Part shown: positions 5,868 to 63,544 of the stretch, in pieces
Layout: every line of letters starts with the position of its first letter
How positions within the stretch are numbered: position 1 is the first letter of the stretch
NCBI GenBank assembly: GCA_026770705.1
Contig: JANJGN010000021.1
Location: forward strand, 12,276,001-12,340,000
Source: Isurus oxyrinchus
Lineage: Eukaryota
Direction: 5' to 3'
Length of the DNA: 64,000 bases
Notes under the pieces: model-generated
Database searches by the model: none
The model's input: the letters and a program-made list of their open reading frames with translations, nothing else
Told to the model about the DNA's origin: nothing
Position numbers and translations under genes: made by a program

Positions 5868-8800
5868 AAAGTTCCCTGATGGAAATGGTTAAGATGCCAA
5901 ACTGCACGACGTCTTCAGCAACCCTGCAGACGGAGCGCAGCATAGATACACCTGGTCGCGGCCAGACGGGTCCATCCGTTCCAGGATAGACTTCCTGTTT
6001 GTGTCCCGTGCAGTCAGATCCACCAATGTCAAGCCGGTGTTCTTCTCTGACCACTGCCTCCCACTGGCTGACTGTCACTTAGAAGACCAGAGGGTGGGCA
6101 GGGGGGCATGGAAGCTAAACATGCAACAGCTGACCCCAGGGAACATTGAGGAGCTCAAGAGGGATTACAAAGGTTGGAGAACCATGAAACCCCTCTTTGA
6201 GTCCCTGACACACTGGTGGGAAGCGATCAAGGGAAACAGCAAGAGGTTTTTCATTCTCAAAGGCACCCAGAAAGCTAGAAAGGAACAGAGGGAAATGTCC
6301 CGACTCCAGAAAAACATGTAGGATCTGCTCTGGCAGCAGTCGATGGGAGTCGATGTCAAGGAGGAACTCCAAGAGGTGAAGAGCCAGCAAGCCTCGCACT
6401 TTGCCTCGGAGACCTCCAAGATCATCTTCCATTCCAGAGTCCGCTCCGTGGAGTACGACGAGACATGCTCACGTTTCTTCTTCCAAAAGGTACACAGAGA
6501 GAGCTCTGTGATCAGCAGCCTGAAGGAAGAAGACGGCTCAGTAAAGACATCACAGTCCGACCTTTTGAGGATCAGCAAATCCTTTTATGCCAGATTGTAT
6601 GACGTGAAGCCCACAGACAGCACAGCATCCCAGTCCCTCCTGTCCTCTATCATGGACGTCTTAGCCAGTACACGGGAGAGCCTGGACAAACTGCTAACTC
6701 CTGACAAACTGACTAAGACCCTTGAGTCCTTCGAGAAGAGTAAAACTCCTGGAAGCGACGGCTTGCCGGCGGAGTTGTATTTGGCTCTGTGGGACTGGAT
6801 GGGCCCAGACCTGCTAGGAGTGTACGAGAGTATGTCAGAATCCATGAGGAAAGGCTTCATCACCCTCATCTACAAGCACAAGGGGGAAAGGGAGGAAATT
6901 AGAAATTGGCGACCCATTTCACTGTTGAATGTGGACTATAAGATTCTGTCCAAGGTCATCACCAATCGGGTCAAATCCGCTCTGGAATTGGTGATCCACC
7001 CTGACCAGACCTGCACTGTGCCGGGCAGGAAGATCTCTGACAGCCTCGCGCTGCTCAGGGATACGATTGCCTATGTACAGGACATGGGTGTGGATACCTG
7101 CCTCATCAGCCTGGATCAGGAGAAGGCCTTTGACAGAATATCACACACCTACATTGTGGATGTGCTCTCCAAAATGGGGTTTGGGGAGGGAATTCACAAT
7201 TGGATCCAACTGCTCTAAACTAACATCGATAGCACAGTCTCAATCAATGGGTGGGAATCAGATAGCTTTCTAATTAAACCTGGAGTCAGGCAGGGCTGCC
7301 CTCTCTCCCCTGTCCTGTTTGTGTGTTGCATAGAACCCTTTGCTGAGTCCATCAGGAAGGATCCGGGCATAAGAGGAGTGACGATCCCAGGCAGTGGAGG
7401 CACTCAGGTCAAAGCATCTCTGTACATGGACGAGTCTCCGTCTTCTGCTTGGATCTCCTGTCGGTGCGCAGACTTATCCACATCTGCGACCAGTTCGAAC
7501 TGGCCTCGGGAGCCAAGGTAAATCGTGGGAAGAGCGAGGCCATGTTCTTTGCGAACTGGGCTGACCGATCCCTTGTCCCCTTCACTGTCAGGGCTGACAG
7601 TCTGACGGTGCTGGGGATATGGTTCGGAGGGACTGGGGCATGCATTAGAAACTGGAAGGAGCGATTGTCTATGGTGCAAAGAAAACTGGGCATGTGGGAG
7701 TGACGCTCCCTCTCCATTGTGGGTAAGAACCTGGTCATCAGGTGTGAGGCACTCTCGATGTTGCTGTATGTGGCACAGGTCTGGCCCATTCCAGACTCCT
7801 GCGCGATGGCGATCACCCGAGCCATCTTCCGCTTTATCTGGAGGTCGAAAATGGATCGTGTCTGCAGGGACGCGATGTACAAGCCTCGAGATAAAGGGGG
7901 AAAAAACGTGCTCAACATCACCTCATACTGATGGCCACCTTTGCATCAAGTTGTGCGTAGACCCTTGGTACGCAAACACCAAGTGTCACTATGTTCTACC
8001 TGTCCCCAGTGTTGTGAAGGATGGGTCTGGCCACGCTGCCGCGGAACGCTCCAAGTAGTTGGACTGTGCCATACCACCTGTCCCTGGTGGAAAAACTTAT
8101 GCAGAGAAACACCTTTGACCACAAGTCCATCAGGCAGTGGTCGGCACGTAACGTCCCAGAGGCCCTGAGGGAAAAGGAGAGGGTGGATCCTGTGGGATGG
8201 TTCCCCGAGCATACTGTCAAAGTCATTTGGCAGAATGCCTCATCGCCAGAACTTTCCAACAAGCACTAAGATGTAGCTTGGCTGCTAGTGAGGAAGGTCC
8301 TCCCCGTCAGATCCTTCCTACACACCAGGAGTCTCACCCCCTCTGCGCGTTGCCCTCGAGGTGGCTGTGGTGGGGAAGAGACTGTTGTTCACTTCCTTGT
8401 GGATTGTGCATTTGCAAAGAAGGTCTGGAGAGAGATGCAATGGTTTCTGTCGAGGTTCATCCCGAGCAGTTCTGGGACACAGGACTCTGTGCTCTACGGT
8501 CTGTTCCCAGGGACACACACCGAGACAAACATCAGTTGCAGCTGGAGGATCATCAGCTTGGTGAAAGACGCTCTTTGGTCTGCCCGAAACTTGTTGGTCT
8601 CCCAGTGCAAAGAGTTGTCCCCGACCGAGTGTTGCAGACTGGCACATTCCAAGGTCCAGGACTACGTGCTGAGGGACGCACTAAAGCTTGGGGCAGCCGC
8701 CACAAAGGCCCAATGGGGAAAGGTCGCTGTCTAAGACCTTTCTGCCACAGTGCACCGAGGGGCTGGGAACTGTTGAGAGCCCCTCGGGCTGTGCAGCTCA

Positions 8801-9060
8801 AAATGAATGTCTGCAGTGAATACTAATTGTATTGAAGCACCTCAGAGTGCAACATGATGTATGTTGATAACTCCAATACCATTGTCTGATTGTCTGCATT
8901 GACCAGATTGAAATGATTGTAATATTCATTGAGTGTATTGATGGACCTTGTGATACATGTGTAAAAGTTGAACCTGATTGTACTTTTGCGATGGTGATTT
9001 TGAAATGGTTTGGAATGTTCTTCCAGATATTTTATGATTAAAGTATATTTTTCAAAAAAT
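5868..9060 (+). mobile_element. 5'-truncated Tx1/L1-clade non-LTR retrotransposon; ORF2 pseudogene (endonuclease C-terminus, RT, C-terminal Zn finger) plus 3' UTR
   Basis: SRIDFLFV...FFSDH (endonuclease); KTPGSDGLPAELY, NWRPISLLNVDYKILSK, LDQEKAFDRISH, GVRQGCPLSP, broken YMD(D) near 7423; CPRGGCGGEETVVHFLVDC; stops at 6319 and 7216, frameshifts; ORF ends 8734; A-rich end near 9060. Confidence 0.93.
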
Positions 9061-9942: not shown

Positions 9943-10084
9943 TAAAAACAAAAAACTGCGGATGCTGGAAATCCAAAACAAAACCAGAAATACCTGGAAA
10001 AACTCAGCAGGTCTGGCAGCATCGGCGGAGAAGAAAAGAGTTGACGTTTCGAGTCCTCATGACCCTTCGACAGAACGTCAACTT
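9943..10084 (-). mobile_element. Short Penelope-like (pLTR-type) element with a minimal hammerhead-like motif at 10040-10076
   Basis: Minus strand GTT-CTGTCGA-A-GGGTC-atgag-GACTC-GAAAC-GTC-AAC, followed by the body shared with 16771, 27490 and 63446. Confidence 0.7.
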
Positions 10085-15820: not shown

Positions 15821-15977
15821 TTCCTTAATGTCAGTACCATCAGTTAGCTCTCCTGGATTAGCTTTTAACAGACTAAGGGGGTAGCAGAGAATAAATTTAC
15901 AGATTTCCTGTCCTTAATTGATCTTGGGTTTTCATCTATGTTTCTGCCTTTCCCAAAAGGCTGATGGTGGACAGGGA

Positions 15978-16650
15978 GTGTCTATTACACAGTGTTGCTA
16001 TTCCTGGTTATAAGGCAGTGTCTATTATGCAGTGTTGCTATTCCAGCGGATAAGGCAGTGGCAATTATGCAGTGTTGCTGTTCCAGCGGATAAGGCAGTG
16101 GCAATTATGCAGTGTTGATATTCCAGTGGATAGGGTGGTATCTATTAGGCAGTGTTGCTGTTCCAGTGGATAGGGCTGTGTCTATTATGCAGTGTTGCTA
16201 TTCCAGTGGATAAGGCAGTGTCAATTATGCAGTGTTGATATTCCAGTGGATAGGCCGGTGTCTATTATGCAGTGTTGCTGTTCCAGTGGATAGGGCAGTG
16301 TCTATTATGCAGTGTTGCTATTCCAGTGGATAGGGCAGTGTCTATTATGCAGTGTTGCTGTTCCAGTGGATAGGCCGGTGTCTATTATGCAGTGTTGTTA
16401 TTCCAGTGGATAAGGCAGTGTCTATAATGCAGTGTTGCTATTCCAGTGGATAGGGCAGTGTCTATTATGCAGTGTTGCTGTTCCAGTGGATAGGCCAGTG
16501 TCTATTATGCAGTGTTGCTATTCCAGTGGATAGGGCAGTGTCTATTATGCAGTGTTGCTGTTCCAGTGGATAGGCTGGTGTCTATTATGCAGTGTTGCTA
16601 TTCCAGTGGATAGGGCAGTGTCTAATATGCAATATTGCTACTCCTGGTTG
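15978..16650. repeat. 40-bp minisatellite, 16 full units plus a partial unit
   Basis: Consensus tctattatgcagtgttgctattccagtggatagggcagtg, no indels. Confidence 0.97.
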
Positions 16651-16770
16651 CTGTCCAGCATGGTGTAGTAACTCCTGTAGGAAAGTGATGCGAGTTAAAA
16701 TCAGGTGAGAAGAATAACTCACTTCTCCCTATCAGCCATCCACCACCCCTGGCTGGTAAGTAACGTGAGA

Positions 16771-16993
16771 TAAAAGCAAAATACCGCGGATGCTGAAAAT
16801 CTGAAACAAAACAGAAAATGCTGGAAAAATCCAACATGTCTGGCAGCATCTGTGGAGAGAAAACAAACAGAGTTAACTTTTCGAGTCTGCTCTGAAGAAG
16901 AGTCATACGGACTCGAAACGTTAACTCTTTTTTTTCTCCGCACAGATGCTGTTAGACCTGCTGAGCTTTTCCGCCATTATCTGTGTTTGTTTG
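16771..16993. mobile_element. Fold-back pair of Penelope-like short elements; hammerhead motif on + strand at 16889-16925
   Basis: Left arm ...catctgtggagagaaaacaaacagagttaacttttcgagtc and right arm gactcgaaacgttaactctttt...cacagatgctg are reverse complements; core CTGAAGA-A-GAGTC-atacg-GACTC-GAAAC-GTT-AAC. Confidence 0.75.
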
Positions 16994-19900
16994 AGTAACA
17001 TGTGAGCCCTCCCGCCAGTTATCGCTGCATGGGACAGGTACCAGAGCTGTTCCAGCACCTAAACTGCACCCCAACTTCATCGAAAGGGGGGAAGATTGAA
17101 GCAAGAAGCCCCAATGGGGTCACTCACTGAACAGCTTCAGGCTTTCTTTCAATCCAATCCCAAAATGCTAAGTGTAAATTCGATAGGAATCTGATTTTTT
17201 TTATCACTAATTTCACATTGTTCCCAAATCCTCTCCTCTTTTCTCCAAGCAGCCTCTCACTTCCCCCCTTGACAGGATCTTCATTTCAAATACACATATT
17301 AATTTCCGTGTCTCACCATCAGTCAGAATTTTATTCATCATTGTTGAGGATACACTGGCTTAGGCATCCACCCCCACTCTCTCCACCCCCCCCCCACCCC
17401 CCACCCCCAGTACAACAAGGCCATCTATTGAAAATGTTGAATGACCCTCGTGTTTATAATGACAGATCTGGTGAACACCAGACATTAAAGGCTCATTGTC
17501 ATCCTGTCAGCCATCTGGACTGCTTGTGTGCTTTTTGCAACAGGCCAGACTGTTTCCACTGGCGATAGCATCAAAACAACGTCACAGACAGCACAAGCAC
17601 ACTGCTGTGCACATGTAGAAGCTGATGGGATTGTGGACCCACCAGGACTGTGCCAGCTTACATCATTTTCTCAAATAACATTCTTTTTACGAAAGGTAAC
17701 CAGACTGGGGGATTTAAAATGGTCCAAAAACATGTCAAGTCTATAAATCACGCCGCAGTAACATTTCCTCTCTGTGTCTCATTCTCCAGACTGGGTGTAT
17801 TGTTTGTAAACAGAATCGCCAGAAACTCTAAATCGCACATAGGTCTTAAAAATGAGAGGAACTGTGTAAGACGTTCGCCATGTCTGGGTTAATTAACAGG
17901 CAGGCAGTTCGCTAAAGTGTTTGTGTGACACTTGGGACTAGCCATCATGATATCCATTAATACCCCTTGTGAATTCTAATCCTGATTCTTCCAGCCCTGC
18001 TGCTAATGTTGGTCAGAAACGCTAAAGGTGTGGGGAGCGAAAGGGAGAAGACACACAAAGCGTTTTCTCGAGGAAACAACCGGAACGGCTTCTCACCGCC
18101 GTTCCTGGTTAAACACTGCAGATGGAAGCAGCAGCAGTGAGACAAACTGACAAACCTCGCGCACAGAACAGCAGTGATGTCATTTTCCTGAGTGCTCACT
18201 CCTGCTGGGAGGAAAATGAGGAGCAGATGCGTTTTTATTGGTGTTTTCTACCCAACTCCTCAGCCCTTACGGGAATGTGGTTTCTCGTCGTGTGGAATGC
18301 TCACTTAACAAAACCGAACGGAAGCTAAATTCCAACCCTGCTCCTCCCAACTCGATTAGTCCGATTGAGTTTGTGTAATATTATAGCTGACTTTCGTAAT
18401 ACGACTTTAAGAGACATCGGGATGTCATCCCTGGAAGGGAAATGTGTCGTGCGATCCAGTCTTAGTTTCACTTTTGCTTTGAGCAGAGCGCACACACACA
18501 GCTCTGATGTCTTCAAGCTGTAAGCCCATGTATATCTATTCTCGTGTGCCCAGTCTGAATAAATGGGCCCACAACATGTTTACCAAATCCCTTATGAGCG
18601 ATTATAATATCATTATAATAACACAGCGTGATGATCTGCAGTGGTCAAACAGCCTGGCAGCAAGATTATTTACAGGTATGGCATGGTGAACAACATTAGA
18701 TCATGCTACATGGCATGCAAAAACCCTCAATGTTTTGGTCAGACCATATTGAAGTCACAGAATTGGGGGAATGTTAAAAATGCAGCAGGTGACTACAAAG
18801 AAAAGCTTTGGAGCAAGGGGGAGTCAAACAAAATAAAAACAGAACAACAATAAAATCATAACAGACATAAAAATTAGGCCGGCAAAGGCCTATAACAGCA
18901 GCTTCGGGAGTCGCTGAACAACCAATTGAATAAAAAGAAAAGATGCCATTACTCCATGGTGCGTTCCCACCACAATTCGTCTTCATGGGCGGATCTTCAG
19001 AAAAGCACATGAAAGCAACCACAAAAGCATGTGGCAGAAAGGGCCATTGGTAGCGGCAGTGCACTATAGTAAAGGCTGATGTAGCTAGAAAGAGCCATGC
19101 ACTGATCCAAAAAGACCTTACACAATGGGTATCTTCAAGTGATAGGAATGACCATCTGGTGCCCCATCAGAAACATACACATGAAATGACTGACGAACCA
19201 GAAAATGACGATGATGTGCACGATAAGACAAAGAGCGGTGAACACTTTTCACTCCATCAATCTCGTGGAAAACACAGACGCCATCACACTGTCCAAAGTG
19301 TTTGCCAACCAAATTATCTGTCCTAAGAAAGTTGGTAACTACTCGTTATTGGCCACGAAAGACACAGGGGCAAGTGCCAACATACTACCTCTGCATGGAA
19401 GGCCATGGCAAAACCTACTGCTGGGAAACTCTCAGCATATAGCAGTTCACTAATTCTACATACAGCATCCATAGTCCTGGATTGCAAGTGCAATCAGTCC
19501 TCCTGGGTTTCACACATGTTCTACATCGTGGAAGCTAAAGGCCCATGATTGCAGGTCTATCAGCATGCTGTGATCTCCCACTAGTTACAATCCATGGAAT
19601 TAGTCAGACACACAAGGCAGGTTAACCTTAGAAACTACACCTATCATGCCTCTTCATGACCTAACATTGAAACATTCTGGACATTTCGACAAAATTGGCA
19701 GTTTCAAGGAAGCTGCAACATTACCCTTGCAGGAGAATGTAATTTGGTCACTTGATCCACCACACAAGTGCAGTATCCACATACAAGACAAATTGAAAGT
19801 CAAACTAGACAAAATGGAGAAAGATAGAATCATTAGAACAGTACAAGAGCACATGGATTGGTGTAGTTCAATTACATGTCATAAAGGACAGGTCATTGAG

Positions 19901-20195: not shown

Positions 20196-23100
20196 ATCAC
20201 AGAATCACAGAATCCTAATGGCACAGAAGTAGGCCATTCGGCCCATCATGTCTGCACCAGCTCTCCACATGAGCATTATGACCTAGTGCCATTGCCCTGC
20301 CGTTCCCTTGTACCCCTGCACACTGTTTCTATTCAATTAATCATCCAATGCCCTCTTGAATGCTTCAGTTGAACCTGCCTCCACCACACTGCCAGGCAGT
20401 GCATTCCAGACCTGAACCACTCATGTGAAAAAGTTTTTTTCTGACAATACATTTGCTTCTTTTCCAAATCACTTAAAATCTGTGCAGTCTCATTCTTGAT
20501 CCTTTTATGAGCGGGAACAGCATCTCCCTAACTACTCTGTCCAGCTCCTCATGATTTTGAACATCTCTATCAAATCTCCTTTTAGCCGCCTTCTCTCCAA
20601 GGAGAACAGTCCCAACCTCTCCAATCTACCTTTGTAACTGAAGTTTCTCATTCCTGGAACCATTCTTGTAAACCTCTTCTACACTCTCTCCAATGTGTTC
20701 ATATCTTTCCTATAGTGCAGCACACAGAACTGTGCACAATACTCCAGCTGAGGTCTAATGAGTGTCTTATATAAATTCAGCATAACGTCCCTGCTCTTGT
20801 ACTCTATGCCCCTATTAATGCATCCCAGGATACTATATGCTTTATTAACTGCTCGTTCCACCTGACCTGCCATCTTCAACGATTTATACACATATACGCC
20901 CAAGTCTTTCTGATCCCGCACCCCCTTCAAAATTTCACCCCTTATTTTGTATTGTCTGTCCATGTTCTTCCTACTAAAATGCATCATCTCACACTTCTCT
21001 GCATTGAACTTCATCTGCCACCTATCTACCCACTCCACCAACTTGTCTATCTCCCCTTGAAGTTCTACAACATCCTCCTCACAGTTCACAGCACTCCCAA
21101 GCTTTATATCATCCACAAACTTTAAAATGATCCCCTGCACACCAAGATCTAGATCATTGATATATATCAAGAAAAGCAGGAATCCCAATACCGACCCCTG
21201 GGGAACTCTACTACAAACCTTCCTCCAGCCTGAAAAATATCCATTGACCATTACTCTCTGCTTCCTATTTTTCAGCCAATTTTGTATCCACATTGCTACT
21301 GTCCCTTTTATTCCATGAACAATGACTTTTCTCACACATTTGTTGTTGGCACTGTGTCAAATGCCTTTTGAAAGTCCATGTACACCACATCAACAGCATT
21401 ACCCTCATCAACTTTTTCTGTTACCTCTTCAAAAAACTCCAGCAAGTTAGTTAAACAGGATTTCCCCTTTAGAAATCAATGCTGGCTCTCCCTTATCAAT
21501 CCATATTTTTCTATGTGAGTACTAATTCTATCCTGAATAATTGTTTCTAGAATCTTGCCCACCGCTGAAGTTAAACTGACCGGTCTGTATCTGCTGGGCT
21601 TATCCTTACAACCTTTTTTGAACAAGGATGTAATGTTTGCAATCCCCCAGTCCTCTGGCACCACCCCTGAGTCTAGGGGAGACTGAAAGATTATGACCAA
21701 TGGCCCTGCAATTTCTACTCTCACTTTATTTAATATCCTTGGATCCATCTCGTCCTATCCCGGTGCCTTGTCAAATTTAAGTACCGACAGTCTAGTCAAC
21801 ATTTTCTCCTTATCTATTTTAAACCCTGCTAGTGACAGAGTTTCCTCGTCTGTTACCATGGCATGGGTAGCATCTACCTCCATGATAAAGACAGATGCAA
21901 AGTACTCACTTAACACCTCAGCCATGGCCCCTTCATCCATGTGGAAATTCCTTTTTAGGCTCCTGATCGGCCCTACTCCTTTTACTATTTATATGCCTAG
22001 AGAAGACTTTGGGATTCCCCTTTATGTTGGCTGCCAGTCTTTTCTCATAATCTCTCTTTGCTTCTCTAAAATGCTTTTTCACCTTCCCTCTGACTTTTGT
22101 GTTCCTCTTGGTTCTCAATTGTATGTTCTACATGACATTTGTCATAAGCACAGTTTGGCTTCTTTATCTTAAATTCTATCTCATTTTTCATCCAGGGAGC
22201 TCTGGATGTGTTTGCCCTACCATTCCCTTTCAATGGAATATACCTTGACTGTGCCCGAACCAATTCTTTTTTGAAGGTTCAGCTACAGTTTTTCCGGCTA
22301 ATCTTTTGTTCCAGTCTATATGGCCCAGGACCTTTCTTGCCCCATTGAAGTTGGCTCTCGTCCAGTTAATTATTCTTACTCTGGATTGCCTATCGTCCTT
22401 TTCTATCACCATCCTAAAATGTACAATACAATGATCACTGTCTCCTAAATGTTCCCCAATTGACACTTGATCTACTTGGCCCACCTCATTTCCAAGAACC
22501 AGGTCCAACAGTGCATCTTTTCTTGTTGAATTGGACACATATTGCTGTAGAAAATTCTGCTGAACACAATCTAGGAAATTTTGTCCCACTCCACCCTTTA
22601 CACTACCTCTGTCTCAGTCACATTTGGATAATTTAAGTCACCCATTATAACTACTCCACAATGCTTGCATCGCTCTGTAATTTTCCTAGAGATTTGTTCT
22701 TCTACAACCTTCTCACTATTTGACGGTCTGTAGACTACACCGAGCAATGTAATTGCACCCTTTTTGTTCCTTAGTCCTAACCAAACTGATTCTGTCCTTG
22801 AACCTGCTGGGACATCCTCTTTCTCCAACACTGAAATGTTCTTCTTAACCAATACTGCCACCCCTCTTCTTTCCCTTCCTTTCCTATCTTTTCTGAACAC
22901 CTTGTACCCGGGAATATTTGGTACCTTGGAATATTTAATACCCAATTCTGCCCTTCCTTGAGCCAGGTCTCTGTTATTGTCACAGCATCATATTCCCACA
23001 TGGCAATTTGTGTCTGTAACTCCCCAGTCTTATTTACTATACTCCGTGCATTCACATACATGAATAATAACCCTGATTTACATTTTGTTACTTTCTCCCT

Positions 23101-27489: not shown

Positions 27490-27567
27490 CTGCCAGACCT
27501 GCAGAGTATTTCCACCCTTTTCTATTTTTCTTTCAGATTTCCAGCATCTGCAGTATTTTGTTTTTGA
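27490..27567 (+). mobile_element. Truncated Penelope-like short repeat, no ribozyme part
   Basis: ctgccagacctgcagagtatttcc...cagatttccagcatctgcag matches the body of 9943 and 16771. Confidence 0.7.
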
Positions 27568-36173: not shown

Positions 36174-37379
36174 CTAGCTGAAGGAGTGTTGGATCAAAGC
36201 TTCCCGGGTGTCCCTGCCTCCCTGGAGGTTGCCCAGGTCAGCGTCCATCCCCTCAGCATTCTCCGGACCGAGCTCATCCTCGGACTCACTACTGGATTCA
36301 TCGTCTGCAGCCAGAGCAGCTGTGTCAACATCTTCTTCCTCCACTGCATCCCCTCTTTCCAGCGCCAGATTGTGGAGAATGCAGCATGCAACCACTGGCA
36401 CTGAGACACGATCTGGGGGGTACTGGAGTGCGCCCCCTGAGCGGTCCAGGCATCTGAAGCACATCTTGAGAAGACCGATGGCTCTCTCCACCACAGCCCT
36501 TGTGGAGCCCTGGCTCCTATTGTACCGCTGCTCAGCTTCTGTTCTTGGATGGCGGAGAGGCGTCATGAGCCACCTTCTGAGGGGATAGCCCTTGTCACCC
36601 AGCAGCCATCCATCCAGCCGGGCTGGAGCACTGAAGAGCCCCGGCACCTGGGAGTGTCTGAGGATGTAGGCGTCGTGGGAGCTGCCTGGGTACCTTGCAC
36701 AGACTTGTAGAATCAGCATCCTGTGGTCACACACTATCTGCACGTTCATGGAGTGGAAGCCCTTCCTGTTGACGAAGGCACCGGGCTCACCTGCTGGTAC
36801 CTTGATGGCCACATGTGTACAGTCTATAGCACCCTGGACACGGGGGATCCAGCAATCACTGCAATGCCTCTGGCTCGCTCTGCCTGGCTGGCCTTGTCCA
36901 TGTGGTATGAATGAAAGTCAATGCACACCTGAACAGAGCGTCTGTCACCAGCTTGACACAACTGTGGACAGCTGATTTGGAGACTCCACAAAGATCACCC
37001 ACTGACACCAGTGGGCCAGAGACATAGAAGTTGAGGCCACTGTGACCTTCAGAGCCACTAGCATGGGGTGTCCACCCTCCCAGTTGGAGCTGATCTCAGT
37101 GCCGATCATTTGACAGATGGAAGTCACTGTCTCCCTTGAGAGGCAGAGCCTCCTTCAGGATTGCACCGCAGACACATTGAGGTAGCTGCTTCACCGCCTG
37201 TAAACCCTGGCAGCAAGACAGTGGCATCTTCTGCGGCCCCTTCCACCTTGGACTTCCTGTTGGCCCTGCGCCCCTTGTGCCTGCGCCTGTGCCTGTCCTC
37301 CCACAGGTCACTCCCCTGGAGGCTGAATAGGGACACCTGGCCTCCTCCCCCTTCTCAAAGTGGAGACCACAATCCCCAT
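36174..37379 (-). pseudogene. Harbinger (HARBI1-like) DDE transposase; C-terminal 212 aa open, N-terminus frameshifted
   Basis: [66 protein letters not shown]. Confidence 0.92.
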
Positions 37380-61721: not shown

Positions 61722-62245
61722 ATTTGTCTTCCCTTGAGTTTAGAAGGTTGAAGGGTAACCTTAACAATGTATTGGAAGTGAGAGGATTTGACAGGGTGGG
61801 CGCAGAGGGAAGGATTTTCTGGTTCCGACACTGGCGGGCATCATCACAGGCAGGATGGGAAAATTTGGAGAGCCGTTGGCTTTTAATGGCTCTCCCAATT
61901 TTTCCGTCCTGCCTGTGAAGATACCCGTCAGTGTCAAGGCCAGAAAATCCTACCCAGAGAATCTATCGCCTCTGATGAGGGAACTCGAGAACGAAGGGTC
62001 AGGATCTTAAAAGTAGAGAAAGGTCATTTGGGGGCGGAATCAGTATCAGGTTATGGAAATCGGGAATTCTCTCCCCCCTCCCAAAACCAGCGTCCACTGG
62101 GTCACTTGGTGTTCTTAATAAATTTTAAAAGATGGAGGGATATGGAGCTACGGCAAATAAATTGGGTTGAGGCACAAATCAGCCATGATCTAATGGGCTT
62201 GCATAATAGGCTAAAGGGGCTGAATGGCCTGCTCCTGTTCTTGTA
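61722..62245 (+). mobile_element. CR1 3' fragment split by a palindromic MITE
   Basis: SLEFRRLKGNL...RGFDRV; tail ggctgaatggcctgctcctgttc. Confidence 0.75.
61807..61955. mobile_element. 149-bp fully palindromic Harbinger-type MITE
   Basis: gggaaggattttctgg ... ccagaaaatcctaccc; arms pair to the centre; TSD AGA. Confidence 0.9.
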
Positions 62246-63267: not shown

Positions 63268-63445
63268 CTGGTTAAGAGCAAAACGAACTTATGTTATGTT
63301 AGTTCAATTGTTTCACACTGCCAGGCTCACTCCTGTCAGTTTTCCTAACTCACTATCCACATTTGCATTGTATAATGATCTTAAACAGAAAAAAATAATC
63401 AGAAGTCTTTTTAGTTTTGTAATATTTAAAAGAGATTTTAAACGT

Positions 63446-63544
63446 GAAATAAAAACCGAGATCATTGGAAACACTCAGCAGGTCTGGCAGCATCTGTGGA
63501 GAGGGACTTAGAGTTAATGTTTCAGGTTGGTAATCTTTCACCAG
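63446..63544 (-). mobile_element. Penelope-like short element with a decayed hammerhead motif
   Basis: Body ctcagcaggtctggcagcatctgtggag; minus strand CTGGTGA-aagattaccaacct-GAAAC-ATT-AAC at 63513-63544. Confidence 0.65.

Follow-up and report, generated by a model that had tools for sequence, protein, structure and literature searches.

Head-to-head Penelope-like pLTR ends with a hammerhead motif in Isurus oxyrinchus

Described Penelope-like insertions and the fold-back unit

Inverted, 5'-truncated copies with one-sided tails of 30-40 bp, target-site duplications (TSDs) and TATA/Inr motifs in the pLTR have been published for Penelope-like elements (PLEs) (PMC8557442, PMC3846280). According to the same sources, insertions of EN+ PLEs such as Adineta Pen2a show a head-to-head inverted pLTR with the tail on one arm, and a single RT+GIY-YIG ORF has a start region that overlaps the pLTR. 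The hammerheads of the metazoan PLEs Xena, Poseidon and Neptune are type I motifs that have no helix III, a palindromic 15.2-16.2 segment, an extra nucleotide before stem II and a G10.1-C11.1 pair. They occur mostly as dispersed single motifs and sometimes as close pairs on opposite strands, with Neptune present in fishes (PMC4209133). The purified protein of Poseidon from Anolis carolinensis (PAc) cleaves and extends both target strands, its cDNA starts internally at two sites bounding the tail just downstream of the hammerhead, and RNA with a dead hammerhead is still inserted (PMC11167929). Non-LTR retrozymes are non-coding, related to pLTRs and carry a type I hammerhead; by definition their units are arranged head-to-tail in tandem, every unit bears a hammerhead, and circular RNAs are formed (10.64898/2026.07.22.740005). 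Our search of the literature outside subscription journals, Repbase and supplements found no paper on this shark family or on twin priming by PLEs.

We analysed 64,000 nucleotides of Isurus oxyrinchus DNA (contig JANJGN010000021.1, forward strand; hereafter the window), which hold a fold-back unit at 16770-16993. Self-BLAST of the window gave an inverted match over 16801-16995 (150/199 identities, E 1e-31). The predicted RNA fold of the unit is a single long hairpin of -97.2 kcal/mol (z -11.2), and 0/200 shuffles were equally stable. Both results bear out the two inverted repeat copies that an earlier, sequence-only reading had described.

Signed positions below are counted from C3 of the core, with window 16892 as 0. 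The left arm (16770-16887, minus strand) is a 5'-truncated pLTR end running from about +18 to the end of the tail (+16 to +132 in the nhmmer model). It begins at the 3' strand of stem II, ends at the far 3' end of the family, and is without the CUGA box, having GAAAAGUU in place of GAAACGUU. The right arm (16889-16993, plus strand) is a sense, tail-less pLTR end from -3 to +101. Its start, 3 nt before C3, coincides with the pile-up of 5' ends in the family. One extra T at 16888 separates the arms at the head-to-head junction. The arms are unequal: the Penelope 'tail' of about 31-33 nt (16770-16802, minus strand) is confined to the left arm, and the CUGA half of the motif to the right arm. Their identity is only 84%, not closer than that of unrelated arms, a value compatible with an old insertion or with separate templates for the two arms. 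A probable but imperfect TSD flanks the unit, with AGTAACGTGAG at 16759-16769 and AGTAACATGTGAG at 16994-17006 (both plus strand); the copies, of 11 and 13 nt, differ by a 2-nt indel, and the ungapped TSD score is 6 against a cut-off of 8.

We regard it as near certain that 16770-16993 is a head-to-head pair of Penelope-like pLTR ends. Its layout and motif have already been published, and the copy belongs to a known class of PLE pLTR insertions. As in Adineta Pen2a, we found the head-to-head inverted pLTR, a truncated inverted copy with a single tail, TATA/Inr-like motifs in the pLTR and, at the level of the family, TSDs; an ORF with RT and C-terminal GIY-YIG, preceded by a repeated pLTR with which its start region overlaps, is also present. 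Unlike in Pen2a, only the final 105-118 nt remain of each arm here, and short arms of this kind predominate in our genome sample (80/116 arms). This copy is ordinary, and it is likely that it was left by one insertion event rather than representing a member of a new non-coding family.

The relatives previously placed at 9943, 27490 and 63446 of the window were found at 9943-10076, 27490-27565 and 63441-63543. The first (minus strand) is a solo tailed copy with a complete motif, a CUGUCGA (U6) core and a GUC site, flanked by a ~14-bp duplication, TATTAAT(C/T)TGTGGT. The second (plus strand) is a tailed fragment that starts at about +56, without the hammerhead, and has TTTGAAACT on either side. 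The third (minus strand) is a decayed tail-less relative.

The hammerhead motif in this copy and across the family

The right arm carries a minimal type I hammerhead motif at 16889-16926 (plus strand; motif type after PMC4209133). It consists of CTGAAGA (16892-16898), an extra A, GAGTC (16900-16904), ATACG and GACTC (16910-16914), followed by GAAAC (16915-16919), GTT (16920-16922) and AAC. Stem II has 5 bp (GAGUC/GACUC), a palindromic ACGU replaces stem III, and the predicted cut falls after 16922. Stem I of this copy (GCU/AAC) has only two pairs, U-A and G-C, around a C/A mismatch, short of the usual 4-5 bp; the family at large has 4 bp with 93% of cells paired. The core, the 5-bp stem II, the palindrome in place of stem III and the short, imperfect stem I thus read as they had been described. 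With its CUGANGA-N core, G10.1-C11.1 stem II and GAAAC-GUH palindrome, the motif matches the metazoan PLE type, as had been proposed. The C/A mismatch in stem I and the GUU site of this subfamily set it apart from the metazoan PLE hammerheads.

The right-arm motif is the single match to the expression CTGA.GA...GAAAC in the whole window. A database search for hammerheads, suggested with the earlier reading, came back empty: the Rfam scan of the window gave no hammerhead family at E<=1. Rfam matches to miRNA hairpins were taken as chance. A catalytic dimer was not obtained among predicted dimer folds, a result that is neutral as evidence. The monomer fold is weak (-2 to -8 kcal/mol), and the long predicted hairpin pairs the 3' half of the motif with the left arm. 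The hammerhead of this copy probably cannot cut, given that almost no stem I is left and that the motif would be tied up in the long hairpin.

Stem pairing was compared in 32 copies, namely the fold-back copy and 31 picked by a pattern that required CTG..GA, GAAA and an upstream TATA-like word (3/34 pattern matches were excluded). We found that 95% of the stem cells pair across these copies. Covariation of stem II had been named beforehand as a test, and it failed: 0/9 pairs were altered on both sides in the 32 copies, which are one family with low power, and the sole variation was A-U/G-U at one pair. Genome-wide counts for one stem-II pair were A-U 4,863, G-U 1,616, A-C 50 and G-C 16. T>C at that site amounts to 1.0% with either partner (A, 50/4863; G, 16/1616). 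Therefore, the 3'-side change at this pair is neutral.

Exact pattern matches throughout the genome have U at core position 6 in 96,596 cases and A6 in 6,479. The U6 lineage, with its non-canonical CUGUCGA/CUGUUGA core, is dominant and youngest and still has many intact ORFs; the intact coding copies belong to it. Such a core is not described in the available text of PMC4209133. In another hammerhead, A6C lowers Mg2+ activity by orders of magnitude (PMC7151607). The 5' ends of 7 of the 116 sampled arms lie at +29..+33, close to the predicted cut (+31), against about 4 expected from the flanking density, and the main peak of 5' ends sits ~35 nt upstream of this cut. Since compensatory stem changes are lacking, 5' ends show no clear peak at the cut and the dominant lineage is U6, cleavage looks dispensable for mobility on these genomic comparisons. 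The vast expansion of the U6 lineage suggests mobility without the need for cleavage. Insertion of PAc is likewise apparently independent of cleavage (PMC11167929).

The coding Penelope-like element

The earlier observation that no Penelope ORF is present held for the window, where tblastn with the intact family ORF as query gave no match, but not for the 4.98-Gb genome, which has intact 926-codon frames. Thirty loci were fetched with the right arm, and four of them (L019, L022, L024, L027) have common upstream sequence, which in L019 leads to a GIY-YIG-type frame. A first-look search for this frame gave 133,344 candidates genome-wide, a figure that is not a copy number. In 29 of the 30 best loci, the ~135-nt unit lies downstream of EN, mostly ~320-550 nt past the stop; only L052 is without it. 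The intact 926-codon frame was found in 18/20 loci, chosen for long frames, mostly as pLTR-ORF-pLTR. Another candidate for a full-length element (L063) was rejected, its 5' copy being an unrelated stub.

The 926-aa frame comprises an RT with YIDD and an RVT_1 match, a CX4CX2C linker and a YIG endonuclease. The Pfam GIY-YIG model gave no match to the isolated 109-aa EN piece, in which YIG and CCHH-type residues are visible. The closest named homologues are bamboo-shark proteins with 63-67% identity; homologues of the ORF carry PF00078, and some carry PF01541 as well. The linker sequences CNHRRCNTC and CPRKRCNTC agree with the CX2-5CxxC that defines the Neptune/Nematis clades (PMC8557442), and the RT+GIY-YIG element fits the Neptune/Nematis type by this linker. 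It would thus belong to another clade than PAc.

The fold-back copy's exact 34-mer occurs 463 times in the genome, compared with 0 for the reversed control. Among the first 30 of these loci, ORF/EN sequence lies immediately upstream in five (L154, L163, L165, L172, L175). One exact-34-mer copy, L181, runs past the tail into ORF aa 1-465 with 76-81% identity, and L222 begins at model position -10, directly ahead of the ORF. Judged from its neighbours at these loci, the ~135-nt segment is shown to form the element's 3' end and also to lead into the 926-codon RT+GIY-YIG frame. This confirms the proposed link to RT+GIY-YIG elements and agrees with the proposed insertion by the protein of the Penelope element. 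Fold-backs range in size from ~160 bp to structures with 2.2-kb arms that contain ORF sequence.

Several further arrangements were observed among the coding copies. At L217 and L219, full-length pLTR-ORF-pLTR units stand head-to-head, a large-scale counterpart of the fold-back layout. Contig C317 of G000 has near-identical element copies ~10 kb apart in a tandem array (L231, L232). A frame of ~30 codons opens with an ATG inside the pLTR, at about +52, in L181 (1553-1650), L214 and further intact copies; it is in phase with the main ORF, with one TAA between them. The young lineage has an early stop of this frame at a CCAG|GTAATT donor-like site and, ahead of the main ATG, an acceptor-like tract. 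A leader intron or read-through is possible.

Sampled arms, insertion mechanism and alternatives

To describe the family genome-wide, we sampled 1.2 Mb in evenly spaced 10-kb stretches, 120 in number and taken from large contigs at round coordinates, and searched them with a profile of natural copies. The profile gave 133 matches in the sample and 0 on the reversed sequence. Twelve matches were dropped (ending before +40, score under 50, or duplicates), leaving 121 arms, 116 of them away from stretch edges. The sample scales to roughly 5 x 10^5 arms in the genome, a rough figure. The sequence is very abundant, as had been claimed.

The 3' ends of the 116 arms are bimodal, ~33 nt apart, at about +99 in 64 tail-less arms and about +132 in 52 tailed arms. 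PAc likewise has two preferred 3' ends bounding its tail, and its hammerhead heads the ORF region, as here (PMC11167929). Exactly one tail is present in 21/22 head-to-head pairs (p 5e-6); the remaining pair is borderline, and L107 contributes two pairs. There are 0 tail-to-tail pairs in the 1.2 Mb. A TSD score of at least 8 was obtained for 11/21 fold-backs and 10/41 short solos, together 21/62 vs 0.2% of shuffled flank pairs, and 41/62 short or paired insertions have no TSD at this cut-off. Pair junctions vary from overlaps of 1-14 nt to inserts of ~60 nt, with no single joining rule shown, and both arms of a pair usually match references of the same age class.

The 5' ends of the same arms comprise 36 long ones, 8 at -53..-11, 29 at -10..+1 and 43 further downstream. 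The pile-up at -10..+1 relative to -53..-11 is significant (p 4e-13), with alignment-based ends uncertain by a few nt and subfamily divergence upstream a possible source of inflation. Among the 30 exact-motif loci, 15 start at -9..-1. Intact-pLTR copies have TATAAA, TATATA or TATATT ~30 nt before a YYAGYY-like element with its A at -4. From the spacing of these motifs only, we infer that the RNA starts at the A (-4) of a YYAGYY initiator.

We consider it probable that the fold-back consists of two short pLTR-end copies made in one insertion, with both cut target strands priming reverse transcription. The RNA would start at the initiator A, ~30 nt after the TATA-like box, with the hammerhead as a passenger at its head. 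The element protein, a predicted dimer in the Anolis element, would nick both target strands, and each strand would prime internal cDNA synthesis from one of the two sites. Use of the pLTR copy at the 5' end of the RNA would give a cDNA that runs off after 100-135 nt in a strong-stop-like manner, and use of the 3' copy would give longer arms truncated at their 5' ends; arms of 0.6-2.2 kb were observed. End-joining of the two cDNAs would then give a head-to-head unit with one tail. The one-tail-per-pair rule and the 5'-end wall fit such two-site priming, and they suggest that the arms are likely run-off cDNAs primed from both cut target strands.

These family-level counts are relevant to how Penelope elements form inverted structures and to what their hammerheads do. 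They would carry what was established in vitro for a single Poseidon element, PAc, over to a family of Neptune/Nematis type in vivo, where the mechanism is read from genomic footprints. Since the genome has many intact ORFs, these points are testable.

Head-to-head palindromes of Adineta Penelopes have been read as products of self-priming, either by snap-back of the first cDNA or by priming on an antisense template (PMC3846280). We judge this improbable for the present family, although some junctions lie on short palindromes (L073, L085), and 7/22 pairs conform to snap-back, their tail-less arm beginning downstream of the tailed one by >3 nt. Simple snap-back predicts a tail-less arm contained in the tailed arm, and this fails in 9/22 pairs and in the fold-back copy, where the tail-less arm extends further 5' and has sequence that is missing from the tailed arm. 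Later deletion could account for some of these nine failures. In addition, we found tail-less solo copies with their own TSDs (L080, L100, L108, L266), and therefore the proximal site can start an insertion alone.

Run-off at an RNA 5' end is also not the only source of a 5' pile-up: the hammerhead fold could stall the reverse transcriptase, or the tract before stem I could act as a splice acceptor as in D. virilis, where the end of an intron maps to helix I (PMC4209133). The monomer fold does lie at the position of the pile-up, and the upstream tract ends in TTAG/TCAG, a pyrimidine tract followed by AG. However, the AG is retained by 9 of the 15 copies whose 5' ends lie at -9..-1, an upstream exon shared by the copies was not seen, and long copies extend across the fold, which is weak. 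We thus find stalling or splicing unlikely. A TCT that recurs before the motif in the top BLAST loci was considered as a shared exon; it is absent as a pattern in the 30 exact-motif loci and was taken as query selection.

The promoter of D. virilis Penelope is internal and TATA-less (PMC2377424), so short copies might be transcribed independently. The ~135-nt head module could then be a self-sufficient RNA with an internal promoter and both RT start sites, and the Neptune-type protein could re-mobilise some short copies once transcribed, making up a SINE-like family with several hundred thousand members, a scenario to which we give little credence. In that scenario the hammerhead fold would serve as a 5' boundary or a protein-binding element and not as a nuclease, because the most successful lineage lost the core A6; this too we regard as very doubtful.

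Most improbable is the reading proposed from the sequence alone, an independent, non-coding, hammerhead-headed family of retrozyme or SINE type that is transcribed, cleaved and mobilised in trans: animal retrozymes have been derived from pLTRs in a preprint (10.64898/2026.07.22.740005), an internal promoter has been reported for D. virilis Penelope, most arms are short and many of them share one start and have their own TSDs, but the short sequence is, subfamily by subfamily, the end of coding copies, lengths form a continuum up to 2.2-kb arms, short copies lack the upstream TATA-like box, and neither compensatory stem changes nor a clear placement of ends at the cut were seen. The fold-back unit resembles non-LTR retrozymes in being non-coding and pLTR-related and in carrying a type I hammerhead. 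In contrast to their head-to-tail tandems, it is head-to-head, has one complete motif, and has ends that do not appear to be fixed by cleavage. A ribozyme-driven family of its own is unlikely, and the unit is the shared end of an autonomous element.

The window holds several other features. Its open frames at 6322-8823, 20682-21356 and 36177-36917 are, by resemblance, presumably a LINE (L1/Tx1-like), a CR1-like RT and a Harbinger-like transposase, respectively. A 40-bp minisatellite at 15854-16650 ends ~130 bp ahead of the fold-back unit. Two inverted repeats with 98% complementarity, 2921-3152/5639-5870 (232 nt around 2.5 kb) and 12275-12382/12573-12680 (108 nt around 190 nt), are possibly young inversions or terminal repeats. 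At 61807-61955, 71-nt inverted arms with a 7-nt loop gave a sub-threshold match to a miRNA family, and this is probably a palindromic repeat.
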